Of a stretch of 64,000 nucleotides of DNA, positions 1,496-32,220 are shown in pieces. Both the position numbers and the translations under genes were made by a program. Position 1 is the stretch's first letter. Each line of letters starts with the position of its first letter. Source of the stretch: Candidatus Methylomirabilota bacterium (GTDB lineage Bacteria > Methylomirabilota > Methylomirabilia > Rokubacteriales > CSP1-6). The stretch spans positions 1,483 through 65,482 of the forward strand of contig DASTFB010000101.1 in assembly GCA_035709005.1 (NCBI GenBank), read 5' to 3'. Under the pieces are notes generated by a model, which saw only the letters and a list, made by a program, of their open reading frames with translations, searched no databases and was not told the origin of the DNA.

Positions 1496-1525
1496 CGAAC
1501 CCCTTTCGCGGAAAAGGAGTGAAGC

Positions 1526-17646: not shown

Positions 17647-18833
17647 GCAGCCGCCAGCGCCCGACGGCTGAGCCCGTCGTCGTGGTGGCGGCCGGCGTGG
17701 TGACGCCGATCGGCACCGATCTCGACGCGTTCTGGTCCGGTCTCGTGACCGGCAGCGACGGCATCTCGGTGATCGAGCGCTTCCCGGTCGCCGATCTGCG
17801 CGTGGCCCGGGGTGGGGAGATCAAGAAGCTGCCCCTGCCGGGCGGGGGACCGGACGGAGCATGTCGGGCGACGCTCCTGCTGGAGGCGGCGGCCCGCGAT
17901 CTGCTGGCTCGCGTCAGCTTGCTGGCGCCGCCGGAGCGGCGGGCCGTGGTGCTGGGCACTGCGCTGGGCGGTGTGGAGGAGCTGGATCGGGCCATCGCGG
18001 GCGACGCCGGCCTCCGCCGGGCAGCGGGCGGCCTCTACGATGCCCCGACCCTGGCCCTGGCGCGCCGCCTCGGCGCGCGCGGCCCCGCGCTCACCGTCTC
18101 GACGGCGTGCGCGTCGGGGGCGACCGCCCTGGGCCTGGGCGCCGACCTCTTGCGCGACGATCGCGCCGATCTCGTGGTGGCCGGAGGGTACGACGTGCTC
18201 TGCCGCTTCGTCATGCGGGGCTTCGATGCGCTGCGCTCGCTGACCCGGGAGCGGGTGCGTCCGTTCGACCGGCGGCGGAGCGGGCTTCTGCTCGGCGAGG
18301 CGGCCGCCCTCGTGCTGCTGGCCCGGGAGGCCGACGCGCCCGCCCCGCGGCTGGGGCGTCTGCTCGGCCACGCCAGCACCAGCGACGGCGCCCACATCGC
18401 GGCGCCGGATCCGAGCGGCCGCGGACTCGAAGCCGCCATCAGGAGCGCCATGAAGCAGGCGGCCGTGACGGCGGGCGACATCGACTTCGTGAGCGCCCAC
18501 GGCACGGCGACACCGCTGAACGACCCCATCGAGACGGCCGTGCTCAAGCGGGTGCTGGGCGCGCGCGCCCGGGCCATTCCCGTCAACTCCATCAAAGGAG
18601 GGCTCGGCCATACCATGGGCGCCGCCGCCACCCTGGAGGCCGTCATGTGTCTGCTGGCGTCGCGACACGCGGTGATTCCGCCCACGCTCGGCTTCGAGGA
18701 GCCCGACCCCGAGTGCGACCTCGACTACGTGCCTCGCCAGCCACGGCCCGCGCGGCCGGTGGTGAGCCTCAGCACCTCCGCGGGCTTCGGCGGGTGTAAC
18801 GCGGCGCTCGTCCTGGAGGGCGCGGCGCCGTGA
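17643..18833 (+). CDS. Beta-ketoacyl-ACP synthase (FabF/KAS I-II type), KS1
   Basis: Active-site Cys (TACASGAT). His-His motifs (SAHGTATPLND, GHTMGAAA). GTG start overlapping the upstream stop. Confidence 0.85.
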   Translation: MSSRQRPTAEPVVVVAAGVVTPIGTDLDAFWSGLVTGSDGISVIERFPVADLRVARGGEIKKLPLPGGGPDGACRATLLLEAAARDLLARVSLLAPPERRAVVLGTALGGVEELDRAIAGDAGLRRAAGGLYDAPTLALARRLGARGPALTVSTACASGATALGLGADLLRDDRADLVVAGGYDVLCRFVMRGFDALRSLTRERVRPFDRRRSGLLLGEAAALVLLAREADAPAPRLGRLLGHASTSDGAHIAAPDPSGRGLEAAIRSAMKQAAVTAGDIDFVSAHGTATPLNDPIETAVLKRVLGARARAIPVNSIKGGLGHTMGAAATLEAVMCLLASRHAVIPPTLGFEEPDPECDLDYVPRQPRPARPVVSLSTSAGFGGCNAALVLEGAAP

Positions 18834-19681
18834 AGCTCGCCGCGGTGGGCGTGCTGACGGGCTGGGGCGCCGGGCTCGCGGCCTTCCCCGCCGATGCCCG
18901 GGAGGCGGCCGGCGATCGGCCGGTCGTGCCGCTGGCCGACCCGCTGCTGGCCGGAGAGCGTTTTCGCCGCGCCACCCGCGAGTGCCTGCTGGGCGTCGCG
19001 GCGGTCATGGAGCTGTTGAAGCGCGCCGGCATGGCCGGCCAGGCCATCCGGGGCTGCGACAGCGCCCTCGTCTACGTGACCGCCGGCGGCTATGGCGCCT
19101 CGAACCGCGCCTTCATCGAGGCCGGCTCGCGACCTGGCCGGGGAGCGCTCCACTTCCCGTACACGGCGCCGAGCGCCGTGCCGGCAGAGGTGGCCATCGA
19201 GTTCGGGCTGACCGGCCCCTACGTCATCCTGGTCGGCGGCGCCACGGCCACGCTGGATGCGCTCTGGCAGGCCGAGCGCCTGCTCGCCGAGGGCGCGTGT
19301 CGCCGGGCGCTCGTCGTGGCCGTCGAGACGTTCGCCGAATGCGCCGACCTCTACCGTCGCGCCCGCTGGCTCGTGAGCCGGCCCCTCGTGGAGGCTGCCG
19401 TCGCGGCGTTGTTCCTGCCCGGCGAGCCGGCCTCGACGGTCCAGCCAGCCGTCGAACCGGCGGCGCTGGAGCGACTGGCCCGGAAGCGGGCCGGCGAGAC
19501 CCTGGCCTGCGCCCCGCTGATCCAGTTGGCGCTGGCGCAGGAGTTAGGCGAAGATGCCGGTGACCTCACCGGCATCTGGCGCGGGCGGCGCGCCGCGCTC
19601 GTCGCCCGCCGGGGAGCCGGCCCGGGCCGCCGCCGTCCGGACCAGATCGTCTGCGCTGCCGTTGCTCCGGCGGCGCGCTAG
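18830..19681 (+). CDS. KS N-terminal-like / chain-length-factor-like protein lacking the catalytic Cys (partner of KS1)
   Basis: 283 aa with a thiolase-fold N-domain (YVTAGGYGASNRAF) but no Cys-His-His triad. Translationally coupled to KS1. Confidence 0.6.
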   Translation: MKLAAVGVLTGWGAGLAAFPADAREAAGDRPVVPLADPLLAGERFRRATRECLLGVAAVMELLKRAGMAGQAIRGCDSALVYVTAGGYGASNRAFIEAGSRPGRGALHFPYTAPSAVPAEVAIEFGLTGPYVILVGGATATLDALWQAERLLAEGACRRALVVAVETFAECADLYRRARWLVSRPLVEAAVAALFLPGEPASTVQPAVEPAALERLARKRAGETLACAPLIQLALAQELGEDAGDLTGIWRGRRAALVARRGAGPGRRRPDQIVCAAVAPAAR

Positions 19682-19690
19682 AAGGGGGCC

Positions 19691-19969
19691 ATGGAACCGC
19701 GGGACGTGCTGGAAGACCTCAGGGGCATATTCGTGAGCCGGCTCAAGTTCGAGCCGCGCCGGGTGGCCGACATCGGACCCGAGACCGCGTTGCCCAAGGG
19801 CATAGAGGGTTCGATCGGCCTCGACTCGCTGGACTTCATCGAGCTGGGGTTGGCCATCGAGGATCGCTTCGGCGTCGTGGTCGACGAGTCCCAGGACGAC
19901 CTCGCCGAGCACTTCGCGACGTTCGGGACCCTGTGTCGCTTCATCGTGGAGCGGGCCAAGCCGGCATGA
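19691..19969 (+). CDS. Acyl carrier protein
   Basis: 92 aa with the phosphopantetheine attachment motif GLDSLDFIEL. RBS GAAGGGGG. Confidence 0.8.
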   Translation: MEPRDVLEDLRGIFVSRLKFEPRRVADIGPETALPKGIEGSIGLDSLDFIELGLAIEDRFGVVVDESQDDLAEHFATFGTLCRFIVERAKPA

Positions 19970-21144
19970 AACGCGTCGTCGTCACCGGCGTCGGCGCCGT
20001 CAGCCCGTTCGGTCCGGGCGTCAAGGGTTACTGGGACGGGGTTCGCAGCGGCGTCTGCGCCATCCGGCCGGTCACGCTGATCGACGTCGACGGGCTCCGC
20101 TGCCGGATCGCCGCCGAGGTCCCGGAGCCGGTCCTGGCCTCGGCGCGACGGTCACGCGCCGATCGCCTGGCGCTGCAGGCGGCGCGCGAGGCCGCCGAGG
20201 ATGCGGGTCTGGGCGGCGACGAGCGCGGGCAGGCCGGGCTCGTCGTCGGCGCGGTCGGCGGCGGCATGCTCGAGGTCGAGCCGTGGTACTGGCGAGTGGG
20301 CGAGGCCGACGGACGTGGCCTGCCCCGCGCGGCGCTCCGGGCGATCCTACCCTCGTCGCACGCCGACGTGATCGGTCATGCCCTCGGGCTGGGCGGCCCC
20401 CGTGAGACGCTGGTGACCGCCTGCAGCTCCGGCGCGGCCTCCATCGCGGTGGCCGCGGAGCTGATCCTGGACGGCGTCACGCCGGTGGCGCTGGCCGGGG
20501 GGGCGGACGCCCTGACCCGTATCTGCTATCTCGGCTTCAACGCCCTGAAGCTGCTCGACCCCGAGCCCTGCCGCCCGTTCGACCGGGAACGCCGGGGAAT
20601 GTCGATCGGCGAAGGCGCGGCCTTCCTCGTCCTCGAAGACGCCGAGCACGCGCGGGCCCGCGGGGCGCGCGCGTACGCGGAGCTGGCCGGCTGCGGCATG
20701 ACCTCGGACGCCTTTCACGTCACCTCGCCCGATCCCGGCGGTGACGGCATGGTGCGCGCCATGCGCGCGGCGCTGGCCGCGGCGGGCCTGCCGCCCGCGG
20801 CGGTCGGCTACTGCAATGCGCACGGCACCGGGACCCTGCAGAACGATCGCATCGAGGCGCGCGCGCTGCGGCAGGTCTTCGGCGACGGCGGGCTGCTGGT
20901 GAGCTCGACGAAGTCGATGATCGGCCACACGATGGCTGCCGCCGGCAGCCTGGAGGCGCTGGCCACGATCCTGGCGCTCGGCCACGAGACCGTGCCGCCC
21001 ACGGCGAGCCTTCGCACTCCGGATGCCGACGTGCCCTTCGACTGCGTGGCGGGCCAGGCCCGCGAGGCTCCGCTGGAGTACGCCATCTCGAACTCGTTCG
21101 GCTTCGGCGGCCAGAACGTCACGTTACTGTTCCGGCGAGCATGA
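19966..21144 (+). CDS. Beta-ketoacyl-ACP synthase, KS2
   Basis: TACSSGAAS (Cys), CNAHGTGT and GHTMAAAG (His). ATGA overlap with the ACP stop. Confidence 0.85.
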   Translation: MKRVVVTGVGAVSPFGPGVKGYWDGVRSGVCAIRPVTLIDVDGLRCRIAAEVPEPVLASARRSRADRLALQAAREAAEDAGLGGDERGQAGLVVGAVGGGMLEVEPWYWRVGEADGRGLPRAALRAILPSSHADVIGHALGLGGPRETLVTACSSGAASIAVAAELILDGVTPVALAGGADALTRICYLGFNALKLLDPEPCRPFDRERRGMSIGEGAAFLVLEDAEHARARGARAYAELAGCGMTSDAFHVTSPDPGGDGMVRAMRAALAAAGLPPAAVGYCNAHGTGTLQNDRIEARALRQVFGDGGLLVSSTKSMIGHTMAAAGSLEALATILALGHETVPPTASLRTPDADVPFDCVAGQAREAPLEYAISNSFGFGGQNVTLLFRRA

Positions 21145-22175
21145 GCATCCCGGTCGTCATCACCGGCGTGGGCGTGGTCCACGCTAGCGCCATCGGCGGC
21201 GCCGACGCGCTGGCCGGCGCCCTGTCGGCGACGGCGCCGGACCTGCGGCCGATCGACGCTCTTCCCGAGGATCTGATCGACGAGACCGAGCTGCGGCGGC
21301 TCTCGCGCGTGTGCCAGCTCGCCGTGGCGGCCGGACGGCTGGCCGTCGCCGATGCCGGCGTGGAGCCGGGTGCCGCGCTGGGCCTGATCGTCGGGACGGA
21401 GTTCGGTGACTTCTCCTCCACGCGAGCCTTCGCCGACGGCTTCTTGAAGGCGGGCCCCGCAGGCTTGTCGGCCCTGCAGTTTCCCAACACGGTCATGAAC
21501 ACGATGGCCGCCGCGACGACGATCGCGCTGACGGCGCGATCGTCCTCGCTCACGCTCAACGCCCGTGTCGTCGCGGGCGAGCTCGCGCTGGCCCGGGCCG
21601 CCGCGGCCATCGCTGCCGGTCGGGCCCGGACGCTGATCGCCGGCGGCGTGGATCAGGTGGAGCCCCTCGTCGCCGAGGCGCTGCCCGCCCTCGGCGAGCC
21701 GGCGGTGGAGGGGGAGGGCGCCACGTTTCTGGTCCTGGAATCCGGCGACTCGGCGCGGGCACGGGGTGCGCGCGTGCTGGCCCGGATCGCCGGCACGGCT
21801 TCGCGCGCGCTCGCCGCACGTCCGCACGGTGTCGGCCGTCACGACGGCTCCCGCGCCATTCCGGCTGCGCTCCAGGCCGCCGGTCTGGATGCCGGGGCCA
21901 TCGGCTGGGTGTACGACTCGGCCTCGGGCGACGCAGTCCGAGACGCCTGGCAAGCGCGGCTGCTCGCCCGGGCGCTGGCGCCGGCCGAGCCGCTGCGGGC
22001 GAGCCTGCGTTCCCGGCTGGGGGCTCATGCCGGCGTGAGCGCGATGGGGCTCGCCGCGGCGGCGTGGACGACCGGGTCCGGTCATCTGCCGTGGCGCGGA
22101 GCTGCTGCTCGCGGTCCCGGCCTCGTCTACGGCCTCGCCCGAGGCGGCACCGAGGTCGCGCTGGTCGTCCGGTGA
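21141..22175 (+). CDS. KS-like / chain-length-factor-like protein lacking the catalytic Cys (partner of KS2)
   Basis: 344 aa with a KS-fold and no active-site Cys. ATGA overlap with KS2. Confidence 0.6.
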   Translation: MSIPVVITGVGVVHASAIGGADALAGALSATAPDLRPIDALPEDLIDETELRRLSRVCQLAVAAGRLAVADAGVEPGAALGLIVGTEFGDFSSTRAFADGFLKAGPAGLSALQFPNTVMNTMAAATTIALTARSSSLTLNARVVAGELALARAAAAIAAGRARTLIAGGVDQVEPLVAEALPALGEPAVEGEGATFLVLESGDSARARGARVLARIAGTASRALAARPHGVGRHDGSRAIPAALQAAGLDAGAIGWVYDSASGDAVRDAWQARLLARALAPAEPLRASLRSRLGAHAGVSAMGLAAAAWTTGSGHLPWRGAAARGPGLVYGLARGGTEVALVVR

Positions 22176-23260
22176 CCGTCTGGATCGCGATCCCCGTGTT
22201 CAACGAGGCCGGCACGGTGGGCGAGGTCGTGCGCGCGGCCCGGCGGCACGCGCCCGTGCTGGTCGTCGACGACGGCTCGAGCGACGACAGCGGCCGGGTG
22301 GCGACGGCGGCGGGCGCCGAGGTCATTCGCCATTCGCGTCGCCTGGGCAAGGGGCCGGCGCTGCGCACGGCCCTCACCGCCGCCCGCCACCGGGGTGCCT
22401 CTCACCTCGTCACGCTGGACGGTGATGGCCAGCACGCCCCGGACGACGTGCCGGTGCTGCTGGCGGCGGCCCGGCAGGCGCCCGGCGCCATCATCGTGGG
22501 CACCCGCGTGGGATCCGACGGACAGGCCCCGGGCCTGCCGGTGGACCGTCTCAACGCCATTCGTCTGGCGGGGTTCTTCGTGAACTGGTCCAGCGGGCTC
22601 AGCCTGGGCGACACCCAGTCTGGATTCCGCGTGTACCCGGTGAGCGCCCTGGACGGCATGGCTCTCCGGCGCGGCGGCTTCGTCCTCGAGACGGAAGCGC
22701 TGGTGACTGCGGCCACCCGCGGGATACCGGTCCACGAGGTGCCGATCACAGTGATCCCCCGGGCGGCCCGGCGCAGTCGCTTCCGCCCGGTGGCCGACGG
22801 AGTGGCGATCGGCTCGTATCTCGCCGGGCGAACGCTGCGGCGCTGGGCTGCCGAGGCGCGGGCGGCCGTCGTGGAGGTGGCCGCGGTGCTCAGCCGCGAC
22901 CGCCGCCGCGCTCGTCATGCCGACATGCTGCAGGCCGGAGCCGCACGCGCCGACTCCTTCGCCGGTTGGGGCGTGGCCATCAGCGCGGTCGCCGCCTCCC
23001 ACGCCAGCGCTCGCCTGACGTACTGGTGGGCTCATCCCCGCCGGCGCCGCGCGACCGCGGCCGCCGGCGCGATCCTGACGCTGCCGGTGGTGCTCGCTCT
23101 GACGATCACCCAGGTCGTGGCCGGACGCTTCTTGCCGGACCTCGTGACACCCCTGGTCGATCGCGTGTTCTCTCAGGCCCGGCTCGGCGCTGCCCAGCCG
23201 CCAGGCCGGCCACGCCAGCGGCCTGACGGGACGGGCGCGACCGTCGCTACGCTGCCATGA
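22172..23260 (+). CDS. GT2 glycosyltransferase with a C-terminal membrane region (ArnC/DPM1/GtrB-like polyprenyl-phosphate sugar transferase)
   Basis: AIPVFNE...VVDDGSSD...DGDGQHAP (DxD) motifs of the GT-A fold. C-terminal TM helices. GTGA overlap with the upstream gene. Confidence 0.75.
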   Translation: MTVWIAIPVFNEAGTVGEVVRAARRHAPVLVVDDGSSDDSGRVATAAGAEVIRHSRRLGKGPALRTALTAARHRGASHLVTLDGDGQHAPDDVPVLLAAARQAPGAIIVGTRVGSDGQAPGLPVDRLNAIRLAGFFVNWSSGLSLGDTQSGFRVYPVSALDGMALRRGGFVLETEALVTAATRGIPVHEVPITVIPRAARRSRFRPVADGVAIGSYLAGRTLRRWAAEARAAVVEVAAVLSRDRRRARHADMLQAGAARADSFAGWGVAISAVAASHASARLTYWWAHPRRRRATAAAGAILTLPVVLALTITQVVAGRFLPDLVTPLVDRVFSQARLGAAQPPGRPRQRPDGTGATVATLP

Positions 23261-24531
23261 ACGCGGCCGAGACCTTCGACGTCGTGGTGGTGGGAGGCGG
23301 TCCCGGTGGCTCCACGACGGCCAGCTTCCTGGCCGACGGGGGTTTGCGCGTGGCGCTCTTCGAGCGCGAGGTCTTTCCGCGCTTCCACGTCGGAGAGTCG
23401 CTCATGCCGGCCGCCATGTGGGTGCTGGAGCGGATGGGCGCGCGTCAGGCCGTGGAGTCGGCGGGGTTCCAGATCAAGTACGGGGCGACCTTCGTCGATA
23501 CCGAGGAGGAGCGGGAGGCGAGCTTCTTCTTCCTCACCGGCCAGGCCTGGCCGAGCTACACCTATCAGGTGCCCCGGGCGGAGTTCGACACCCTGCTCCT
23601 CGACCACGCGCGCAGCCGCGGCGTGACCGTGTACCAACCGGCGACCGTGGAGACAGCCGCCTTCGACGGCGAGGGCGTGGCCGTGACCGCGGCGGCCGAC
23701 GGACGCCCGCTGAGCGTGCGGGCCAGCATGCTGGTCGACGCCAGCGGCCGCGACGGCTTTCTGGCCGCTCGGCTCGGTCGTCGGCAGCGCATCCCGAACC
23801 TCGGCAAGGTGGCTCTCTTCGCGCACTTCCGCGGGGCCGACCGGCTCGGCGGCAAGGCAGAGGGCAACATCCGCGTCTACGTATTCCCCGAGGGCTGGTT
23901 CTGGTGGATCCCGCTGGCCAACGATCTCACCAGCGTGGGCGTGGTGATGCACGCGCGCACGGTGCGCGACTGGACGGGCAGTCACGAGGATCTCTACGCC
24001 AGGATGATCGGACGGTGCGCCGGGGTGGCGGCCGGGCTCGGCCACGCGGAGCGAGTCACCGCCGTGCATCCGATCGCGAACTTCTCCTATCTCAACCGGC
24101 CTGTCGTCGGGGACCGCTACCTGGCGGTGGGGGACGCCGTGATGTTCGTCGATCCCATCTTCTCGGGCGGCGTCTACATCGCCATGCGGACGGGGCAACT
24201 GGCCGCCGAGGCGATCCTGGCGGCCTTCCGGGACGGCCGCTTCGAGGCGCGGCGCTTCGCGGCCTACGAGCGACGGATCCGCCGAGGGGTGGCGCCGTTG
24301 CTGCGCTTCATCCACCGGTACTACGAGCCGGCGTTCTTCTACCTGTTGATGCGGCCGCACAACTACTTCGGCGTGTACACCGCGGTGCTCAACGTGCTGT
24401 CGGGCGGCAGCTTCGTCCGGATGCGCTGGCGCACCCGGCTGTCCCTGGCCATCCTCTTCGGCGTGGCCCGTGGCCACCGGCTGCTCCGCTGGTGGTCGGG
24501 CCTGCCCATCGCCTCCCGCCTGGAGTGGTAG
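23257..24531 (+). CDS. Flavin-dependent halogenase
   Basis: N-terminal GGGPGG FAD fold. The halogenase signature GWxWxIP is present as GWFWWIP. Confidence 0.7.
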   Translation: MNAAETFDVVVVGGGPGGSTTASFLADGGLRVALFEREVFPRFHVGESLMPAAMWVLERMGARQAVESAGFQIKYGATFVDTEEEREASFFFLTGQAWPSYTYQVPRAEFDTLLLDHARSRGVTVYQPATVETAAFDGEGVAVTAAADGRPLSVRASMLVDASGRDGFLAARLGRRQRIPNLGKVALFAHFRGADRLGGKAEGNIRVYVFPEGWFWWIPLANDLTSVGVVMHARTVRDWTGSHEDLYARMIGRCAGVAAGLGHAERVTAVHPIANFSYLNRPVVGDRYLAVGDAVMFVDPIFSGGVYIAMRTGQLAAEAILAAFRDGRFEARRFAAYERRIRRGVAPLLRFIHRYYEPAFFYLLMRPHNYFGVYTAVLNVLSGGSFVRMRWRTRLSLAILFGVARGHRLLRWWSGLPIASRLEW

Positions 24532-24541
24532 GGGAGGACGG

Positions 24542-25720
24542 ATGAGGATTTTGCGGTCCTACGCCTTCACGGCTCTCGGCATCGCCATCGGCGTGGCCGG
24601 GCTGGTGGCCCTGGGCGCGATGAGCGAGCGGATCATGCGCTTCATCGAGGGCGGCGACCGGTTCGTGCTCGGTCAGATCTCCGTGGCCGGTCAGGGGATG
24701 GGGATGGGCGCCGGCTTCACCGCTGGCGGCCTGCTGCCCGCGGCGAAGATCCAGGCGATCGGCGCGGTGCCCGGGGTATCCGGTGTGCAGCCGCAAGTCA
24801 TGCTGCCGCTCAACCCGTCGACGTCCCAGTTCATGACCTTGACCCAGGAGCTGGTCCTCGGCATCGATCTGTCGGTGCCCAGTCCGAACCGACACTATCC
24901 GGCGTTGCCCGTGCAGGCCGGGCGCTTCCTGCAGCCGGGGGACAGGTACGCGGCCGTGGTGGGCGCCGCCCTGGCCGCCTCCCGCGGCCTCGCCGTGGGC
25001 TCCCGCCTGACCCTGGAGGGGCGAGACTACGAAGTCGTGGGTGTGCTGGAGCGCATGCTCACGGCGCCCGACCGCTTCGTCGTCGTGTCGATCGAGGACG
25101 CCCGCGAGCAGTGGGTGGCCAAGGACGCCATGCTGCGCACGCTGTTGGCCTCGGGGGCGGCGGCGCTCACCGCCGCCGATCTGAACACGGGCGCGGCGGT
25201 CGGCTGGCGGGACGGCGCGGATCCCGACGCGCTGGCCGAGCGCATCCGGGCCGTGGTGCCGGGCGTGAACGTCCAGCTCCCGCGCGAGCTGAGCAGGCTT
25301 CTGCAGTCGTCGACGGTGTTCTTCTCCGCCCTCGTCGTCGGGATCGCGGTCCTGGGCCTGGTGATCGGCGGGCTCTCGGTGGCCAACACGGTGGCCGCCG
25401 CCGTGTTCGAGCGGCTGCGCGACTTCGGGATCAAGCGGGCTCTGGGGGCCACCGACCTTCAGCTCGGACGGGAAGTGCTCGCCGAGGCGCTGGCCGTGAC
25501 GGTGTCCGGGGGGCTCGCCGGTATCGCGCTCGCCGTCGGGCTCGGCCTGGCGATCGACCAGTGGTCCGGCGTCAAGGGCCAGCAGCTGTTCCTGTTCTCG
25601 CCCCGCCTGGTGGGCGGGGCGCTGGGCTTCTCCCTGCTGCTGGGCGGACTGGCGGCGCTGTACGCCACGCTGCGCGTGGCGCGCCTGTCGCCCGCGGAAG
25701 CCATGCGCCGGGGCGCCTGA
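24542..25720 (+). CDS. ABC transporter permease, FtsX/MacB/LolC-like
   Basis: N-terminal TM, large periplasmic domain, C-terminal FtsX 3-TM bundle. RBS GGGGAGGACGG. Confidence 0.8.
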   Translation: MRILRSYAFTALGIAIGVAGLVALGAMSERIMRFIEGGDRFVLGQISVAGQGMGMGAGFTAGGLLPAAKIQAIGAVPGVSGVQPQVMLPLNPSTSQFMTLTQELVLGIDLSVPSPNRHYPALPVQAGRFLQPGDRYAAVVGAALAASRGLAVGSRLTLEGRDYEVVGVLERMLTAPDRFVVVSIEDAREQWVAKDAMLRTLLASGAAALTAADLNTGAAVGWRDGADPDALAERIRAVVPGVNVQLPRELSRLLQSSTVFFSALVVGIAVLGLVIGGLSVANTVAAAVFERLRDFGIKRALGATDLQLGREVLAEALAVTVSGGLAGIALAVGLGLAIDQWSGVKGQQLFLFSPRLVGGALGFSLLLGGLAALYATLRVARLSPAEAMRRGA

Positions 25721-25724
25721 CGCC

Positions 25725-26390
25725 GTGCTCCTGCGGGCCGAAGGGCTGGTCAAGTCGTACCGCGCGCCGTCCGGGGCCACGATCGCCGTGCTGGGCGGTA
25801 TCGATCTCAAGGTGGCGAGCGGGGAGCTGGTGGTGATCATCGGCCCGTCGGGGTCGGGCAAGAGCACCCTGCTGAACGTCCTGGGGCTGCTGGAGCAGCC
25901 CGACGCGGGCGACATCTGGTACGGCGACGAGCGGGTCAGCGCCCTGGGCCGCTCCCGGCGCAGCCAGGCCCGCGGGCGTCGGGTCGGCTTCGTGTTCCAG
26001 TCGTTCATGCTGTTGCCCTCGTTGACGGCGCTCGACAACGTCTTGCTGGCCGCCCGGTACGCCGGCAAGCCGGGCCCGGCCACGCGGCGGCGGGCCCTGG
26101 AGCTCCTCGAGGGCTTCGGGGTGCTCGATCGTCGCGATCACTACCCACCTCAGCTCTCGGGCGGCGAGCAGCAGCGGGTGGCCTTCTGCCGCGCGTTGCT
26201 CAACGATCCGCCCATCCTGCTGGCCGATGAGCCCACGGGGAACCTCGACGAGGACAACGCGCGAATCATCCTGGACGCGCTCCGGTACCGCGCGCGCGGA
26301 GGCGCCGCCGTGGTCGTGGTGAGCCACAACCCGGAGGTCGCCGCCGACGCGGCCGCCGTCCTGAGTCTCGAGCAGGGCACGTTGCGATAG
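25725..26390 (+). CDS. ABC transporter ATP-binding protein (MacB/LolD/DevA-like)
   Basis: GPSGSGKST, LSGGEQQRVA, LLADEPTGNLD. Confidence 0.85.
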   Translation: MLLRAEGLVKSYRAPSGATIAVLGGIDLKVASGELVVIIGPSGSGKSTLLNVLGLLEQPDAGDIWYGDERVSALGRSRRSQARGRRVGFVFQSFMLLPSLTALDNVLLAARYAGKPGPATRRRALELLEGFGVLDRRDHYPPQLSGGEQQRVAFCRALLNDPPILLADEPTGNLDEDNARIILDALRYRARGGAAVVVVSHNPEVAADAAAVLSLEQGTLR

Positions 26391-26415
26391 CATCCAGCAT
26401 CAAGGGGGACACGAG

Positions 26416-26832
26416 ATGAAAGTGGTCGCGATACTGCTGGCACTCGGCCTGGGACTGGCGGCTCCGGCCGCCGGCGCCGATCCCGTCGTGCGGACGTTCA
26501 ACGCACCCGTGGATCGCGTGTGGACGGTGACGGAGTCGGTGCTCAAGCACCTGGGCTGGGACATCGACAACGCCGACCGCGCGGTCGGCTTCATCACCAC
26601 CGAGTCCCGCTCGCTGGACGGCGAGGACTACGGCGTGTATGCCAAGGGCACGCGTCACCGGCTCCGCCTGCACGTCAAGGAGGTCAGCGCCGGCAAGACC
26701 TCGGTGAGCGTCGAGCGGATCGTCTTCAAGCGGGAGCGGATCTTGTTCGTGGACAAGGACGAGCCCCTGGTGGTCGGCGGCGACCAGTCGGTGGAGAAGA
26801 CGACGCTGGACACGATCGCCAAGGCGTTGTGA
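26416..26832 (+). CDS. Secreted hypothetical protein
   Basis: Cleavable signal peptide (AAPAAGA). Stop overlaps the next start (TGATG). RBS AAGGGGGA. Confidence 0.5.
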   Translation: MKVVAILLALGLGLAAPAAGADPVVRTFNAPVDRVWTVTESVLKHLGWDIDNADRAVGFITTESRSLDGEDYGVYAKGTRHRLRLHVKEVSAGKTSVSVERIVFKRERILFVDKDEPLVVGGDQSVEKTTLDTIAKAL

Positions 26833-27203
26833 TGGCCAAGACCCTCGCCCTGGTGCTTATTGCCGCCGTCATCGGGGGCACCGGCCACACCTTCCTGTCC
26901 AAGGGGATGCGGACGGTGGGCGATCTGACGGAAGCCCCGGCCCATCGCGTCGGCGGCATGGTGGCCCGCGCCCTGGCCAATCCCTGGCTGCTCCTCGGGG
27001 TGGCGCTGCAGGCCACGTTCTTCTTCCTGTACCTGACGCTCCTGTCGCGCGCCGAGGTGAGCCAGATCCTGCCGATGACCGCGATCGATTACATCGTCGT
27101 GGCCTTCCTCGCCTCGCTCGTGCTCGGCGAAGTGGTGACGCCCGTGCGGTGGGCCGGCATCGGGTTGATCGTCACCGGCGTGTTCCTGGTGTCGCGCACC
27201 TGA
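26832..27203 (+). CDS. Small EamA/SMR-like 4-TM protein resembling ArnE/ArnF undecaprenyl-phosphate-aminosugar flippase subunits
   Basis: 123 aa with four TM helices. The C-terminal half resembles the ArnE pattern (...PMTAIDYIVVAFLASLVLGEVVTPVRWAGIGLIVTGV...). Confidence 0.55.
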   Translation: MAKTLALVLIAAVIGGTGHTFLSKGMRTVGDLTEAPAHRVGGMVARALANPWLLLGVALQATFFFLYLTLLSRAEVSQILPMTAIDYIVVAFLASLVLGEVVTPVRWAGIGLIVTGVFLVSRT

Positions 27204-27205
27204 CC

Positions 27206-28927
27206 GTGACGCGGCGTCTGACGCTGGTCTGCGCGGCGGCCGTGGTCGTGGCCGCGGCCCCCTGGCTCCTGATCGGCCTGGGCGCGGCGCCGCTGGACGA
27301 CCCCGGAGAAGGCATGCACGTGCAGATCGCCCGCGAGTTGCGGGCCAGCGGCGACCCGTTGGACCTTCGCCTCAACGGTGTCCGGTACGTGGACAAGCCT
27401 CCGCTGCTCTATCTGCTCGTCGCCGGCGCCTTCGCGCTGGCCGGCGAGAGCGAGGCCGTGGCCCGGGCCGTGCCCGCCGCGGCCGCGCTGGCGGCAGTGG
27501 CGGCGGTGGCCTGGCTCGGCGCGCGGCTGCTCGGTCCCGGCGGCGGCGTGCTGGCGGCCGGCGCGCTGCTGACCAGCGTCGGCTTCTACGCCTACGGTCG
27601 CTACGTCCGGCCCGAAACGTTGTTCGTGGCGGCGCTGACGTGGGGCTTCGCCCTGGCCCTGATCGGAATCCTCGAGGAGCGCCCGGCGCTGGTGGCGGGC
27701 GGCTTCGCGGTGTTCGGTGTGGCCGCCGTCGCCAAAGATCCGCTGGGAGCGCTGGGGCCACCGGTGATCCTCGGGCTCGGTCTCGCGCTGGGTGGTCGCG
27801 CCCGCCCGCTGCGCCGCTGGCTTCCCCCCGCCGGCGTGGCGGCCGCGCTCCTGCTGGGTTTCGGCTGGTGGGCGCTGGCCGAGCTACGCAGTCCCGGCTT
27901 CACGTGGTACACGGTGGTCGACAACCACGTGTTGAACGTCCTCCGGGCGCGCCATTTTCCTGACGAGGACGTCCCCCTCCCCGCGCTGGAGTTCCTGGTG
28001 GTGGCCGCCATCGGCGCCGCGCCGTGGGTGATCGCGGCCGCGGCCGCCGTCGTGGCGCTGCTGCGCGATGGTCGCTGGCGGCGACCGGAGGAGGCGCCCT
28101 GGGTGGTGCTGACGTTGTGGGCGCTGGCCGTGCTGGGTCTCACAGCGCTGTCGGCGTTCCGGTTGCCCCACTACGGGTTGCCCGCGTACCCGGCCATCGC
28201 CCTGCTCGCCGCGCGTGGCTGGCTGCAGGGGCCGCGCCGGGTTCTGCTCAGCGTCCACCTCCTGGCCTTCGCGGCGCTCGCCGTCGCGTGTGCGGCGCTG
28301 TGGGCCGGCGGGAGCGAGCGGTTCGCCAGTCACGTGCTCGACGCCACCGACGTGGCCACGCGAAAAGGCCCCGAGGCCGGACACGCCAGCGTGGCCCCGC
28401 CCTGGGAGGCGATCCGACCACTGCTGGGGGCGACGGCGCTGATCTTCGCGGCGGCCGCGGGCGGCCTGGGCAGCCTGGCGCTCGCTCGCCGGGCGGCGGC
28501 CGGGCCGTGGGTACCCGCCCTGGTCCTGGGGGCGATGATGGCCGTCCTGCCCTGCGTCGGCACCGGGCTGGCCGCGGTGGCGGCGCACCGGGCCGTTCGT
28601 CCCCTGGCCGCCGAGCTGGCCCGGCGCGCGGGGCCCGACGATCTGATCGTGCACGAGGGGCCCCTGGAGAACTCCGGCGCGCTGGAGTGGTACGCGCAGC
28701 GTCGTCCCGTGATCGTGGACGGTCGGCGAAGCGTGCTGGGCTTCGGCGCCACCTTCGACGGCGCTGCCGATCTGCTCTGGGAGCCGGAACGGCTGGAGCG
28801 CGCCTGGGAGGACCGCCGGGTGTGGCTCGTCACGGTGCGGAGCCCCGCGCATTCCGTGGCCGCCGAGCTGCCGGGAGCCCGGCTGGTGGCCGAGGCCGGG
28901 GGACGCCGGCTCTACGTGAACCGGTGA
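27206..28927 (+). CDS. ArnT/PMT-like (GT83/GT39) integral-membrane glycosyltransferase
   Basis: Multi-TM N-terminal domain with the YVDKPPLLYLL motif characteristic of ArnT/GT39-family lipid-linked sugar transferases. GTG start 3 nt after the upstream stop. Confidence 0.7.
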   Translation: MTRRLTLVCAAAVVVAAAPWLLIGLGAAPLDDPGEGMHVQIARELRASGDPLDLRLNGVRYVDKPPLLYLLVAGAFALAGESEAVARAVPAAAALAAVAAVAWLGARLLGPGGGVLAAGALLTSVGFYAYGRYVRPETLFVAALTWGFALALIGILEERPALVAGGFAVFGVAAVAKDPLGALGPPVILGLGLALGGRARPLRRWLPPAGVAAALLLGFGWWALAELRSPGFTWYTVVDNHVLNVLRARHFPDEDVPLPALEFLVVAAIGAAPWVIAAAAAVVALLRDGRWRRPEEAPWVVLTLWALAVLGLTALSAFRLPHYGLPAYPAIALLAARGWLQGPRRVLLSVHLLAFAALAVACAALWAGGSERFASHVLDATDVATRKGPEAGHASVAPPWEAIRPLLGATALIFAAAAGGLGSLALARRAAAGPWVPALVLGAMMAVLPCVGTGLAAVAAHRAVRPLAAELARRAGPDDLIVHEGPLENSGALEWYAQRRPVIVDGRRSVLGFGATFDGAADLLWEPERLERAWEDRRVWLVTVRSPAHSVAAELPGARLVAEAGGRRLYVNR

Positions 28928-30336
28928 GCTATCTGCGCACGCTCTTCTTGCATCCGCCTTCGTTCCGGGGCTTCGACGGCGGGGCGGGGTCGCGCTATCA
29001 GGCGCGGCGCGAAGTGCGCTCGTTCTGGTATCCGACCTGGCTGGCTCAGCCCGCCGCCCTCGTCCCCGGCAGCCGGCTCGTCGACGCCCCGCCGGCGGCG
29101 CTGACGCTGGAGGACGTCGCCCCGCTGGCCCGGGACTATGACCTGGCCGTGCTGCACACGAGCACGCCGTCCTTCGCCCACGACCTGCGGGTGGCCGAGG
29201 CGCTGGAGGCCGTCAATCCCCATCTCCTGGTCGGGCTCGTGGGCGCTCACGTCGCCGTGCAGCGCGAACAGGCGCTGGCCAGCTCGCCGGCCATCGACTT
29301 CGTGTGCGGCGCCGAGTTCGACTTCACCGTCCAGGAGGTCGCCCAGGGTCGGCCGCTGGCCACGGTCGCCGGCCTGTCCTACCGGGCCAATGGCAGCGTC
29401 GAGCGGACGGCCGAGCGGCCTCCGCTCGAGAACATGGACGCGCTGCCGTTCGTGGTCGACGTCTATCACCGGGACCTGGTGATCGAGCAATACTTCATCG
29501 GCTACCTGCTCCACCCCTACGTGTCGATCTACACGGGTCGTGGCTGCCGATCCAAGTGCACGTTCTGCCTCTGGCCTCAGACGGTCGGCGGGCAGCGGTA
29601 CCGGACGCGGAGCGTCGAGCACGTGGTGGCCGAGATCGCCCGGGCCAGCCGACTGTTCCCCCAGGTCAAGGAGTACTTCTTCGACGACGACACGTTCACC
29701 GACGACCTGCCCCGGGCCGAGGCGATCGCCCGCGGGCTCGGGCAGCTCGGCGTCACCTGGTCGTGCAATGCCAAGGCGAACGTGCCCTACGCCACGCTGA
29801 AAGTGCTGAAGGACAACGGGCTCCGACTCTTGCTGGTCGGCTACGAGTCGGGCAGCCAGGCCATCCTCAACAACATCAAGAAGGGCGTGCGGCTCGACCG
29901 GGCCCGGCAGTTCACCCGCGACGCCAAGGCCCTCGGCATCAAGGTCCACGGCACCTTCATCATGGGCTTGCCCGGGGAGACGCGCGAGAGCATCGAGGAG
30001 ACCATCCGCTTCGCCCAGGAGATCGATCCCGACACGGTGCAGGCCTCCCTGGCGGCCCCGTATCCCGGCACCGAGCTCCACCGGCAGGCCCGGGAACAGG
30101 GCTGGCTGGTCGACGACGACCTCGTGGACGGCGACGGTGTGCAGGCCGCCGTGCTGGCGTACCCGCACCTGAGGCGCACGGAGATCTTCGCGTCGGTGGA
30201 CGCCTTCTACCGGCGGTTCTACTTCCGCCCGCGCAAGCTCTTCGCGATCGGGGCCGAGATGGTGCGGGACCCCGCGGTCGGCCGCCGCCGCCTCAAAGAG
30301 GGCGTGGAGTTCCTGCGCTTCCTGTCCCGCCGCTAA
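28924..30336 (+). CDS. B12-binding radical SAM protein, HpnJ-like (hopanoid-associated radical SAM family)
   Basis: Cobalamin-binding Rossmann N-domain. The CxxxCxxC motif is present as GRGCRSKCTFCLWPQ. N-terminal ...PPSFRGFDGGAGSRYQARREVRSFWYPTWLAQPAAL and FFDDDTFTD / GVTWSCNAKANVP blocks, which I recall as HpnJ-typical. Confidence 0.7.
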   Translation: MSYLRTLFLHPPSFRGFDGGAGSRYQARREVRSFWYPTWLAQPAALVPGSRLVDAPPAALTLEDVAPLARDYDLAVLHTSTPSFAHDLRVAEALEAVNPHLLVGLVGAHVAVQREQALASSPAIDFVCGAEFDFTVQEVAQGRPLATVAGLSYRANGSVERTAERPPLENMDALPFVVDVYHRDLVIEQYFIGYLLHPYVSIYTGRGCRSKCTFCLWPQTVGGQRYRTRSVEHVVAEIARASRLFPQVKEYFFDDDTFTDDLPRAEAIARGLGQLGVTWSCNAKANVPYATLKVLKDNGLRLLLVGYESGSQAILNNIKKGVRLDRARQFTRDAKALGIKVHGTFIMGLPGETRESIEETIRFAQEIDPDTVQASLAAPYPGTELHRQAREQGWLVDDDLVDGDGVQAAVLAYPHLRRTEIFASVDAFYRRFYFRPRKLFAIGAEMVRDPAVGRRRLKEGVEFLRFLSRR

Positions 30337-30361
30337 CACCGCCAGTTGGATGGGCGTGTGG

Positions 30362-31105
30362 TCACAGCTCACGTGAGTGGGGGAGGGTTGGAGGGGGGCA
30401 TGCTATGCCCCCCTCCAAGTCCATAAGAAGCTCGCTGACCGTCACCAGCTCGTAGCCCGCCCCCCGCAGCTCGTCGACCATGACAGCAAGCGCGGCCAAC
30501 AGCCGCGCCGGCGCTCCGGGCAGCCCTTCGGCGTCGTGGAGATCGACGATGGCGCCGGCATGGGCCCGCTCGCGCACGTGGGCCGCCTGGGCCGAAGGGC
30601 TGCGGGGACGGAGGCCTTCGCCCTGGATCGACCAGAACACGCAGCGCTCGTTGCACCGGCGCAGGGCGGGGTACATCGCCGCATTGACCATGCCCCACGG
30701 CGGCCGGAAGAGCCGGGGCGCGCGCCCGCTGAGATCGCCGAGCAGCTCGTGGGCCCGACCGATCTCCTCGCCCGTCGCCCGCGGCCCCCGCAGCCAGAGG
30801 CTCGAGTGCGACCAGCTGTGGTTGGCGATCTCGTGGCCGGCCGCCGCCGTGTCCCGCACCACCTCGGCCGCCCGGGCCGCCCGCGCGCCGACGAGAAAGA
30901 ACGTCCCGCGGACGCCCAGTCGGGCGAGGAGGGCCAGGACGCGCGGCGTCCAGGCCGGATCGGGGCCGTCGTCGAAGCTCAGGGCGACGCGGCGGCGGTC
31001 CCGCGGTCCGCGCCAGACGCAGGCCGGCGTCGCCAGGTGGGGCAGCCAGGCGTAGGCCAGCCAGGCGCCGACGGCCACACCCGCCGCCGTGAGCCCGGCG
31101 CTCAC
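30362..31105 (-). CDS. Polysaccharide deacetylase (CE4 / NodB-homology; ArnD/HexD-like de-N-acylase)
   Basis: NodB motifs LSFDDGP, HSWSH, RPPWG. GTG start overlapping the stop of the upstream GT28 gene. Confidence 0.8.
   Translation of the reverse strand: MSAGLTAAGVAVGAWLAYAWLPHLATPACVWRGPRDRRRVALSFDDGPDPAWTPRVLALLARLGVRGTFFLVGARAARAAEVVRDTAAAGHEIANHSWSHSSLWLRGPRATGEEIGRAHELLGDLSGRAPRLFRPPWGMVNAAMYPALRRCNERCVFWSIQGEGLRPRSPSAQAAHVRERAHAGAIVDLHDAEGLPGAPARLLAALAVMVDELRGAGYELVTVSELLMDLEGGIACPPPTLPHSREL
30388..30418. terminator. Bidirectional terminator-like perfect palindrome (14-bp arms, 3-nt loop) between convergent operons
   Basis: TTGGAGGGGGGCAT-GCT-ATGCCCCCCTCCAA. It overlaps the last ~19 codons of the CE4 gene, 52 bp past the rSAM stop. 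Confidence 0.55.
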
Positions 31106-32220
31106 GGGGCGATCTCCCGCCGTTCCAGCACGGCCCTGACCACCCGGCGGCTCGCGTCCGGCCGCCGCAGCCGGCGCGTCTGGCGACGCAAGCGCTCCAG
31201 CAGGGCGGGCTCGGCCAGGGCCCGCTCGACGGCTTGTCGGAGCTCGTCGCGCGAGCGGGCGACCAGCGCGACGCCGCACCGCGAGGCGAACCGCTCGTTG
31301 CGCTGCTCTTGCCCCGGCAGGGAGCCGAAGACGACCAGCGGCACCTCGGCGGCCAGAGCCTCGGCCAGGGTCATGCCGCCGGCCTTCGTGACCAGCACGT
31401 CGGCCGCCGCCATGAGCCGTCGGATGTCGGTCACGTAGCCCAGCGTCCGGATCGGGCTGCCTGCGGTGCGGACGCGCAGCTCGGTCTCCAGGCGCCGGTC
31501 GAGCCCGGCGATGACCAGGGCCTGAAGGGGCAAGCGGAGCTGGGCGAGGACGTCCACGACGTCGGGGAGCCGACCGAGCGAGCCCTGGGCCCCCGCCATG
31601 GCGAGCACCACCGGCAGCCGCGAGGACAGGCCGAAGGCGGCGCGGGCCTCGGCAGGGTCGATGGGATCCTCGAACTCCGGGCGCACGGGGACGCCGGTCA
31701 CGACGATCCGCTCCGGAGGGATGCCCCGGGCGATGAACTCGTGCTTCACCTCGTCGGCGGCCACGCAGTAACGGTCCACGTTCCGGGCGATCCACTGGCT
31801 GTGGGCGACGAAGTCCGTCACGACCGTCGTGTGAGCCGGCACCGCGAAGCCCCGGTCGGCGAGGCTCGCCAGCACCACGGCGGGGGTGGCGTGGACGCTG
31901 ACGACGGCGTCCGGGGCCTCGCGCGCGAGCAGCGCGGCCAGCTTGGCCGCCCCCAGGCGGGTGGCGCCGAACGTCAGGGGCGAGTCGCTGGTCAGCCGGT
32001 CGCCGAGCGCGTAGGCCGCTCCCCACAGGCTGGGGCAGCGGCGCAGCGCCCAGTGATACAGTGCTCGCGTCGCGCGCGCGAAGAGCGGGTGGACGAGATC
32101 ACGGAAGTGGTCCACCACGATCGCGGAGGCGCCGGCCCGGCGAAACGCGGTGGCGAGGCTGCGGGCGGCGGCGTTGTGCCCCGAACCGTAGCTCGCGGTG
32201 AGGACGAGCACGCGCGCCAT
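31102..32220 (-). CDS. GT28 glycosyltransferase, MGDG-synthase/UgtP-like (lipid glycosyltransferase)
   Basis: N-terminal MGDG_synth-like domain (VLVLTASYGSGHNAAA). C-terminal GT-B nucleotide-sugar domain (...VTKAGGMTLAEALAAEVPLV...). Confidence 0.75.
   Translation of the reverse strand: MARVLVLTASYGSGHNAAARSLATAFRRAGASAIVVDHFRDLVHPLFARATRALYHWALRRCPSLWGAAYALGDRLTSDSPLTFGATRLGAAKLAALLAREAPDAVVSVHATPAVVLASLADRGFAVPAHTTVVTDFVAHSQWIARNVDRYCVAADEVKHEFIARGIPPERIVVTGVPVRPEFEDPIDPAEARAAFGLSSRLPVVLAMAGAQGSLGRLPDVVDVLAQLRLPLQALVIAGLDRRLETELRVRTAGSPIRTLGYVTDIRRLMAAADVLVTKAGGMTLAEALAAEVPLVVFGSLPGQEQRNERFASRCGVALVARSRDELRQAVERALAEPALLERLRRQTRRLRRPDASRRVVRAVLERREIAP

Follow-up and report, generated by a model that had tools for sequence, protein, structure and literature searches.

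The radical S-adenosylmethionine (radical-SAM) enzyme HpnJ requires a lipid-linked glucosamine as its substrate. In the canonical pathway encoded by hpnI, hpnJ and hpnK, N-acetylglucosamine (GlcNAc) is added to the lipid and deacetylated, after which the sugar ring is contracted (PMC12583986, PMC13459092); the last reaction is assigned to HpnJ on the basis of published work in which hpnJ was deleted in Burkholderia cenocepacia (reviewed in PMC13459092 and PMC12583986). Here, we have analysed a stretch of 64,000 nucleotides from a Candidatus Methylomirabilota bacterium of the order Rokubacteriales (assembly GCA_035709005.1, contig DASTFB010000101.1, positions 1,483 to 65,482 of the forward strand), hereafter the window, in which an hpnJ orthologue lies convergent with a tightly coupled gene pair encoding a GT28-family glycosyltransferase and a CE4-family deacetylase. 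We propose, with moderate confidence, that this pair is a non-orthologous replacement of HpnI and HpnK, giving hopanoid glucosamine and, with HpnJ, the cyclitol ether. The window has a G+C content of ~72%, and the nearest relatives of its genes are found in metagenome-assembled genomes (MAGs) of Rokubacteria/Methylomirabilota.

Amino sugars are also the subject of polyprenyl-phosphate systems, namely Arn (ArnC/D/E/F/T) and the mycobacterial PpgS with Rv3779. A pair of the same two families as the one described here is formed by HexS (annotated as a monogalactosyldiacylglycerol (MGDG) synthase) and HexD (a polysaccharide deacetylase) of Clostridioides difficile, which are co-transcribed and for which the formation of an N-acetylhexosamine (HexNAc) lipid and then of a hexosamine (HexN) lipid has been demonstrated experimentally (PMC10128005). 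Another system of relevance is the calditol synthase Cds of Sulfolobus acidocaldarius, a radical-SAM enzyme that gives a lipid other than a hopanoid its cyclopentyl head group (reviewed in PMC13459092). Within the library searched, cyclitol ether, deacetylase and hpnJ in combination were found only in two papers, both on the canonical pathway; the combination of GT28 and hpnJ was not searched.

The hpnJ orthologue and the GT28-CE4 pair

The genes at the centre of the locus are the following:

28924..30336, + strand: hpnJ orthologue, a B12-binding radical-SAM protein of 470 amino acids (aa) (TIGR03471; Pfam Radical_SAM and B12-binding)
30362..31105, - strand: CE4 (NodB-type) de-N-acetylase of 247 aa (Polysacc_deac_1, 100.5 bits)
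31102..32220, - strand: GT28 MGDG-synthase/UgtP-like lipid glycosyltransferase of 372 aa (Pfam MGDG_synth and Glyco_tran_28_C)

A first-pass annotation, made from the letters of the window alone, had proposed these three genes; they are real, and the coordinates that it gave coincide exactly with the gene ends. It had also described the radical-SAM gene as flanked by the other two, which must be corrected: hpnJ ends an operon on the + strand, and the CE4 and GT28 genes lie on the opposite strand, convergent with it.

The product of the first gene scores 758.5 bits on the NCBIfam HpnJ model TIGR03471 (cutoff 577.6), with residues 5-470 of 470 aligned. In Pfam, the Radical_SAM domain is matched with 75 bits; the B12-binding domain is matched over its full length but at 29.1 bits, slightly under the cutoff of 32.1. 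The CxxxCxxC motif is intact, and its cysteines (C208, C212 and C215) do not vary across the alignment. An exact-sequence look-up of the window protein returned no database record, and relatives were used instead. Full-length identity to HpnJ from 80 species-representative genomes of many phyla ranges from 63 to 83%; it is 64-66% to the proteins of Burkholderia (64.5%), Paraburkholderia, Gluconobacter and Acetobacter, and 63-71% to HpnJ of canonical hopanoid loci. Clustering at 50% reduces the HpnJ family to a handful of representatives. In the HpnJ tree, the window protein falls in a Methylomirabilota clade that is sister to Acidobacteriota HpnJ, and the acidobacterial genes of this sister clade adjoin a true HpnI (322.7 bits; cutoff 310). 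Judged by its sequence, the window protein is a true HpnJ, i.e., an equivalog or orthologue; the earlier designation as HpnJ-like is borne out by the TIGR03471 score, the radical-SAM motif and the placement inside the HpnJ tree.

Long HpnJ-like proteins were also screened for fusions. One HpnJ-YdjC chimera and one Glyco_transf_21-HpnJ chimera were found, which may be gene-calling artefacts and only echo the canonical hpnI-J-K adjacency; none of the long proteins checked has GT28 or CE4 fused to HpnJ. A 786-aa GT28-HpnJ fusion in locus L039 was rejected as an artefact of open reading frame (ORF) calling, the two genes being read in different frames, with the GT28 stop codon overlapping the hpnJ start. 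Among HpnJ-like B12 radical-SAM proteins from metagenomes (P0176, P0184 and P0132), some carry intein/LAGLIDADG insertions just N-terminal of the radical-SAM core, and P0132, a relative with 46% identity, has lost the CxxxCxxC motif.

The GT28 protein matches MGDG_synth (99.5 bits) as well as Glyco_tran_28_C in Pfam. It does not belong to the HpnI family, being an MGDG_synth member with a GT-B fold, and its closest solved structures are those of a processive diacylglycerol (DAG) glucosyltransferase, plant MGD1 and MurG (PDB matches 9wde, 4wyi and MurG). The CE4 protein, for its part, is not of the HpnK family and matches Polysacc_deac_1 only (Pfam, NCBIfam). Its motifs FDDG, HSWSH, RPPWG and LHD are intact and are conserved in seven relatives, and GlcNAc deacetylases are its top matches in both NCBIfam and the PDB. 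A single N-terminal hydrophobic helix is followed by an Arg-rich stretch; because these charges lie on the catalytic-domain side of the helix, the positive-inside rule predicts a cytoplasmic catalytic domain.

The stop codon of the GT28 gene and the GTG start of the CE4 gene overlap by 4 nt (GTGA) in the window, and the same overlap is found in the related loci L001 and L087-90 (see below), so that the two genes are regarded as a translationally coupled pair. CE4 accompanies GT28 in 10/10 relatives carrying CE4, and the pair forms a stable, separate unit. The next gene on this strand encodes a 140-aa protein without a family match in Pfam or NCBIfam, and no MprF-like flippase gene (HexF/GpgF type) adjoins the pair. 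In L087 (7690-9791, - strand) and L089 (3346-5438, - strand), an LpxL/PIM-acyltransferase-like gene and a methyltransferase gene lie divergent from GT28-CE4; the window lacks both genes, and their products may acylate or methylate the lipid made by the pair.

A phmmer search of the six-frame translation of the 64-kb window found no homologue of HpnI, HpnK, SHC, HpnH, HpnN, HpnL, HpnM or HpnA, in agreement with the earlier statement that HpnI- and HpnK-type genes are missing from it. The query references were proteins from related loci verified with NCBIfam, and the HpnI and HpnK queries score 432.9 and 393.9 bits on their own models (TIGR03472 and TIGR03473, respectively).

The stop codons of hpnJ and the CE4 gene converge with 25 bp between them. 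According to the first-pass annotation, the two units share one terminator. A terminator scan found no canonical terminator in the 25-bp gap, and the structure that folding reveals close by is the following:

30388..30418, both strands: GC-rich hairpin with a 14-bp perfect stem and a 3-nt loop, extendable to 30385-30422

Folding of the + and - strands gives z-scores of -4.58 and -4.15, respectively, and the hairpin lies ~50 nt past the hpnJ stop codon, where it falls in the final ~18 codons of the CE4 ORF. The C-terminal tail of CE4 that encodes it is not conserved among relatives, in which the convergent hpnJ and CE4 genes overlap by 44-98 nt. This strong hairpin could end the radical-SAM operon; given its location inside the CE4 ORF, the empty gap and the lack of conservation, the earlier description as one shared terminator holds only loosely, and the feature is not a conserved one.

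Gene neighbourhoods of hpnJ

We compared 80 species-level hpnJ loci, whose 10-kb flanks were annotated with NCBIfam-verified references. The conclusions on these loci rest on phmmer/tblastn matches together with database gene calls, GC3-based calls having merged or mis-stranded some genes. HpnI is encoded within 4 kb of hpnJ in 55/80 loci, usually on the same strand and directly upstream, HpnK within the same distance in 32/80 and HpnL in 23/80. A GT28-family gene is found within 4 kb of hpnJ in 9/80 loci, and HpnI and GT28 occur together near hpnJ in none of the 80 (Fisher p = 8.8e-6, uncorrected for phylogeny). The GT28-bearing loci fall in two separate clades of the HpnJ tree, and GT28 adjoins hpnJ in three layouts and two phyla, always without HpnI. 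Where both HpnI and GT28 are missing, the neighbours of hpnJ are housekeeping or unrelated genes (PGDH, G6PD, LytR, SDR and others), and no alternative glycosyltransferase is present among them.

Neither HpnI nor HpnK is encoded within 10 kb of hpnJ in any of the 19 loci of the Methylomirabilota type. In the subclade to which the window belongs, GT28-CE4 is convergent with hpnJ in L001, L002, L004/5, L007 and L087-89, and this layout is kept despite differing genes beyond the pair and a GT28 identity down to ~65%; in L002, hpnJ and GT28-CE4 are separated by an insertion of three genes. The loci L087-L091 were found starting from GT28 homologues rather than from hpnJ, and L087, L088 and L089 repeat the layout of the window. 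A different arrangement is seen in L011, of the sister subclade, in which the GT28 gene lies directly upstream of hpnJ and is divergently transcribed. The first-pass annotation had considered neither of its readings of the locus a standard arrangement. This needs qualification: the convergent layout is standard in one Rokubacteria subclade, and the combination of GT28 with CE4 has a precedent in HexS/HexD (PMC10128005). It should be noted that hpnJ adjoins hpnN in another Rokubacteria locus (L012), that squalene cyclase and HpnP have been reported in Rokubacteria surveys (PMC10697835, PMC7306690), and that the HpnJ domain has been reported only in genomes with SHC and HpnH (bioRxiv 10.1101/2025.07.29.667474).

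In the Actinomycetota, a GT28-family gene (Glyco_tran_28_C/MGDG_synth) occupies HpnI's slot in L023, L038, L039, L040, L042, L045 and L078. The GT28-hpnJ clade of this phylum lies in the HpnJ tree near the Gemmatimonadota, which have canonical hpnIJK. The two genes are co-directional in L038, L039 and L042, where the GT28 stop overlaps the hpnJ start, and the window GT28 shares 30% identity (E = 4e-18) with a GT28 preceding hpnJ in Actinomycetes. Locus L078 (8808-13899) has, in one operon and in this order, GT28, hpnJ, hpnR and a drug/metabolite transporter (DMT) gene; HpnR, the hopanoid C-3 methylase, scores 844.9 bits (cutoff 650). The presence of hpnR therefore ties this type of GT28 to hopanoid genes, and the locus suggests that there are uncultured Actinomycetota with 3-methyl amino-sugar or cyclitol hopanoids. 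In L023, from an Acidimicrobiaceae MAG, a PIG-L gene (GlcNAc-PI de-N-acetylase family; 7882-8574, - strand) is divergent from GT28-hpnJ; although it was found in this locus only, its position beside GT28-hpnJ indicates that the deacetylase slot can be filled by different families, PIG-L being the third for the role of HpnK.

Genes for DMT/EamA transporters adjoin hpnJ in three phyla, i.e., in the Acidobacteriota (L030, L037, L044 and L050), in the Actinomycetota (L040 and L078) and in the window. In the Acidobacteriota, two ArnE/F-like DMT/EamA genes lie between hpnJ and a true hpnI. A DMT/EamA gene beside hpnJ never co-occurs with HpnL, an MprF/flippase-like protein whose gene is typically located directly after hpnK, and HpnL and DMT/EamA may be alternative flippases. 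The canonical hpnI-J-K-L order would then parallel hexSDF (glycosyltransferase, deacetylase and MprF-like flippase). From the occurrence of DMT/EamA beside hpnJ in the absence of HpnL, a concrete hypothesis can be formed on what HpnL does and on the way in which amino-sugar hopanoids cross the inner membrane. In the gammaproteobacterial loci L058, L060 and L070, hpnJ is followed by a gene for a conserved 299-aa protein without a Pfam match and then by HpnL, and HpnI and HpnK are not nearby, so that these loci form a further non-canonical setting of hpnJ.

The acidobacterial subdivisions SD1 and SD3 have been reported to contain hpnI and hpnJ and to lack hpnK (PMC5462960), so that the lack of an HpnK is a gap already known from other lineages. 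In L050, from a Terriglobia MAG, a CE4 homologue (~19316-20116, - strand; 32% identity, 83 bits) that shares the arrangement of an N-terminal helix and the FDDG motif lies 9 kb from hpnJ-EamA-EamA-hpnI. It could be the missing deacetylase, or its presence could be a coincidence.

The fourteen-gene operon closed by hpnJ

In the window, hpnJ closes a densely packed operon of 14 genes on the + strand (16828-30336), which has many 4-nt start/stop overlaps; the GTG start of hpnJ itself overlaps the stop codon of the upstream GT-C gene (GTGA). The genes that precede it encode ketosynthases (KS), chain length factor (CLF)-like proteins and an acyl carrier protein (ACP), resembling type II polyketide synthase (PKS) and fatty acid synthase (FAS) components, followed by glycosyltransferases and ATP-binding cassette (ABC) and other membrane proteins:

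16828..22175, + strand: hypothetical 272-aa protein, then KS, CLF-like, ACP, KS and CLF-like proteins (type II PKS/FAS-like; Pfam ketoacyl-synt)
22172..23260, + strand: PpgS/DPM1-like GT2 (Pfam Glycos_transf_2)
23257..24531, + strand: FAD-dependent halogenase/geranylgeranyl-reductase-like enzyme (Trp_halogenase, FAD_binding_3)
24542..25720, + strand: MacB/FtsX-type ABC permease (Pfam MacB_PCD, FtsX)
25725..26390, + strand: ABC ATPase (Pfam ABC_tran)
26416..26832, + strand: secreted 138-aa protein
26832..27203, + strand: small EamA/ArnE-like membrane protein, candidate flippase for the substrate or product of HpnJ (EamA, 39.5 bits)
27206..28927, + strand: GT-C membrane glycosyltransferase, ArnT-like, translationally coupled to hpnJ (PMT_2, 42.8 bits)

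Several of these assignments rest on matches under the cutoffs of the more specific models, namely the FabF-like, AmcF-like and ACP models for the KS/CLF/ACP genes and the LolD-like and MacB-like models for the ABC genes. The GT2 resembles the PpgS/AglJ-type polyprenyl-phosphate glycosyltransferases, with 123 bits on the PpgS model (cutoff 370) and 33 bits on that of ArnC (cutoff 529), and it does not match the HpnI model TIGR03472. The ArnE and ArnF models are likewise under their cutoffs for the EamA protein (ArnE, 31 bits against 92), and the GT-C protein reaches 37 bits on the ArnT model (cutoff 567). As far as these scores go, the resemblance of the operon to Arn is one at the superfamily level only.

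The same KS-GT2-FAD-ABC-(EamA)-(GT-C) operon is closed by hpnJ in L001-L011, L015 and L087-L089. The GT-C gene is located upstream of hpnJ in L001-5, L007, L009-11 and L087-89 and is absent from L006, L008 and L091. EamA-(GT-C)-HpnJ can be considered an optional module, because the L091 version of the operon lacks all three genes and L006 and L008 lack GT-C. A MacB-type permease gene, together with a gene for an outer-membrane efflux protein (OEP), is also found upstream of hpnJ in the Acidobacteriota (L044). That hpnJ belongs to a conserved operon in which PKS-like, ABC and GT-C genes are also found points to undescribed hopanoid-related or cyclitol-bearing products.

At the other end of the upstream region, the window contains genes for an ABC ATPase (176-1264, + strand) of the type that imports heme or corrinoids and then a TonB-dependent receptor (1523-3466, + strand), whose top match is a vitamin B12 receptor model (257 bits; cutoff 600). 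They may be relevant to the B12-dependent HpnJ, though they lie 25 kb away.

Proposed pathway, competing explanations and described systems

From the observed family memberships, catalytic motifs and gene couplings, we infer the substrates and the order of steps in the pathway that we favour. The GT28 protein, as a peripheral GT-B enzyme like UgtP, MGD1 and HexS, would take the role of HpnI and transfer an N-acetylhexosamine, probably from UDP-GlcNAc, to the terminal hydroxyl of its lipid acceptor, presumably bacteriohopanetetrol (BHT), at the cytoplasmic face of the membrane. The helix-anchored CE4 protein, coupled to GT28 and equipped with the deacetylase motifs, would remove the acetyl group in place of HpnK, and the HpnJ orthologue, by virtue of its family membership, would convert the glucosamine ring to the cyclitol ether. 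The small EamA protein may flip the product or a precursor to the outer leaflet, as suggested by the DMT/EamA genes beside hpnJ in three phyla, and, more speculatively, the GT-C protein, the PpgS-like GT2 and the MacB-type ABC proteins could serve in the decoration and export of the product. A hopanoid acceptor is more likely than DAG because of the orthology of HpnJ, the hpnN neighbour in L012, the hpnR gene in L078 and the published surveys of SHC, HpnP and HpnH; a glycerolipid acceptor such as DAG, an option offered in the first-pass annotation, or a polyketide-derived acceptor is less likely.

That recruited, non-orthologous enzymes perform the chemistry of HpnI and HpnK had been one of the two earlier readings of the locus. 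It is strengthened by the mutual exclusion of HpnI and GT28, by the occupation of HpnI's slot in the Actinomycetota and by the two layouts in the Methylomirabilota. Against it weigh the absence of hopanoid genes from the 64-kb window, the location of GT28-CE4 and hpnJ in separate convergent transcription units, and the fact that the GT28 proteins of the window and of the actinomycetes share only ~30% identity. In addition, the top curated match of the GT28 protein is diglucosyl-DAG synthase (264.6 bits on the NCBIfam model, under the cutoff of 500), which makes a glycerolipid acceptor the default expectation. The linkage between the pair and hpnJ is also incomplete: GT28-CE4 is present without an hpnJ operon nearby in L090 and is convergent in L091 with a KS-FAD-FtsX-ABC operon without EamA, GT-C and HpnJ, and in the sister subclade hpnJ is found without GT28 and CE4 within 10 kb in L009, L010, L013 and L015. 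Finally, much of the synteny among Rokubacteria could reflect shared ancestry rather than selection. The loci L090 and L091 and the hpnJ loci without the pair do not refute the proposed replacement. A pair without hpnJ is tolerable because BHT glucosamine is itself an end product, and hpnJ could lie elsewhere in the genome; a strain lacking hpnJ has been reported to contain BHT glucosamine only (PMC12583986).

Some of these observations would also be expected if GT28-CE4 were a HexS/HexD-like synthase of glycerolipid aminoglycolipids (e.g., glucosaminyl- or aminohexosyl-hexosyl-diacylglycerol), altering membrane charge independently of HpnJ, an explanation that we take seriously although we lean against it. 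The adjacency of the genes would then be inherited synteny, and HpnJ would obtain BHT glucosamine via hpnI and hpnK located elsewhere or from another enzyme. This explanation can draw on the best curated match and the closest structure of GT28, on the characterised precedent of HexSD (PMC10128005), on the uncoupled occurrence of the pair (L090 and L091) and of hpnJ (L009, L010, L013 and L015), and on the convergence, rather than co-transcription, of the two units. It would, however, leave HpnJ partnerless in every Methylomirabilota locus examined, against an adjacent HpnI in 55/80 loci elsewhere, and it does not explain the coupling of GT28 and hpnJ in the Actinomycetota, including the hpnR locus, or the divergent pair of L011. 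The absence of a MprF-like flippase partner (HexF/GpgF type) beside the pair also argues against it.

The position of hpnJ allows further views, to which we give less credence. Its coupling within the 14-gene operon, which includes type II PKS/FAS-like genes, in a window devoid of hopanoid genes and beside a GT28 of the MGDG-synthase type, would fit a scheme in which GT28-CE4 supplies HpnJ with a glucosaminyl lipid that is not a hopanoid, the acceptor being DAG or a lipid alcohol built by the KS/CLF/ACP genes of the operon. This would yield cyclitol-ether lipids of a new class, analogous to the calditol lipids of Sulfolobales, for which the Sulfolobus enzyme with its cyclopentyl head group on a non-hopanoid lipid (PMC13459092) is a precedent. 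We consider this quite unlikely: the 63-71% identity to HpnJ of canonical hopanoid loci suggests the same substrate, hpnJ adjoins hpnN in one Rokubacteria locus, the HpnJ domain has been reported only with SHC and HpnH (bioRxiv 10.1101/2025.07.29.667474), and EamA, GT-C and HpnJ are an optional addition to the KS/ABC operon (L091). Somewhat less doubtful, but still unlikely, is the wider view that HpnJ, GT28 and CE4 form one arm of a supercluster of ~16 genes for a new composite envelope lipid. Here, a hopanoid, or else a lipid alcohol derived from KS/CLF/ACP, would carry an aminocyclitol head group, be flipped by EamA and be glycosylated in the periplasm by GT-C with a polyprenyl-phosphate sugar that the PpgS-like GT2 provides, after which the MacB-type ABC system would extract or export the product; DMT/EamA and HpnL would, in the same wider view, be alternative flippases for amino-sugar hopanoids.

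The second of the earlier readings, in which CE4 is an ArnD-like partner of the operon, starts from the fact that ArnD shares the deacetylase fold with CE4 and that both Arn and PpgS with Rv3779 include a de-N-acylation step. The GT2 would make polyprenyl-phosphate-HexNAc, to be deacetylated by CE4, flipped by EamA and transferred by GT-C to a periplasmic acceptor, and the operon does contain a PpgS/ArnC-like GT2, an ArnE/F-like EamA and an ArnT-like GT-C. We regard this as highly improbable, and our comparison does not support it. The CE4 gene overlaps the GT28 stop codon and accompanies GT28, not GT-C or EamA, in all ten CE4-bearing relatives; it is kept where EamA and GT-C are absent (L090 and L091) and missing where GT-C is present (L009, L010 and L015), and there is no ArnD among its nine NCBIfam matches (PdaB, PgdA, NodB, PdaA and similar). 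Moreover, because the GT2 gene stays with the KS/ABC core despite the loss of EamA and GT-C (L091), the Arn-like genes are not one unit.

If the replacement of HpnI by GT28 and of HpnK by CE4 or PIG-L is verified, it will have implications for the search for producers of these lipids. Surveys predict producers from the hpnI, hpnJ and hpnK models, and searches limited to the textbook genes may miss some of them; the abundant and mostly uncultured soil groups of Rokubacteria and Actinomycetota would then have been overlooked as possible sources. The same idea provides a testable answer for lineages with hpnJ but without hpnK, such as the SD1 and SD3 Acidobacteria (PMC5462960).

Comparison with the described systems sets the locus apart in different ways. 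It shares with Arn and PpgS-Rv3779 a GT2 of the PpgS/ArnC kind, a small transporter resembling ArnE/F, an ArnT-like GT-C and, nearby, a CE4 gene. On the other side, all matches fall far short of the family cutoffs, the coupling of CE4 is to GT28 and not to these genes, and the three genes do not co-vary among relatives. With Cds, it shares a radical-SAM enzyme proposed to contract a lipid-linked hexose to a five-membered, carbocyclic and ether-linked head group, a likeness by description rather than by sequence; Cds is archaeal and acts on tetraether lipids, whereas the window enzyme is a clear HpnJ orthologue. The GT28-CE4 pair itself corresponds to HexS/HexD in its two families and its tight coupling, as compared by the annotations in PMC10128005 and not by sequence. 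It differs from HexSDF of Clostridioides difficile and GpgSDF of Pseudomonas aeruginosa (PMC12713373) in having no MprF-like flippase with the pair, in its acceptor, which is probably a hopanoid and not a glycosyl-diradylglycerol or phosphatidylglycerol, and in the ring-contracting radical-SAM enzyme that adjoins it.

The closest comparison is that with canonical hpnIJK, which has the same final enzyme, HpnJ, the same logic and a transporter or flippase gene nearby. The glycosyltransferase of the window is a GT28 (GT-B) enzyme, whereas canonical HpnI is of the GT2/GT21 type, and its deacetylase is a CE4 enzyme, whereas canonical HpnK is of the YdjC type. The genes form a convergent unit instead of an operon, EamA stands in place of HpnL, and hpnJ is part of a large operon that also contains PKS-like, ABC and GT-C genes. 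What is new here, a view for which we see about an even chance, would be that the known logic of hpnI-J-K is carried out by a pair of enzymes of the HexS/HexD type.

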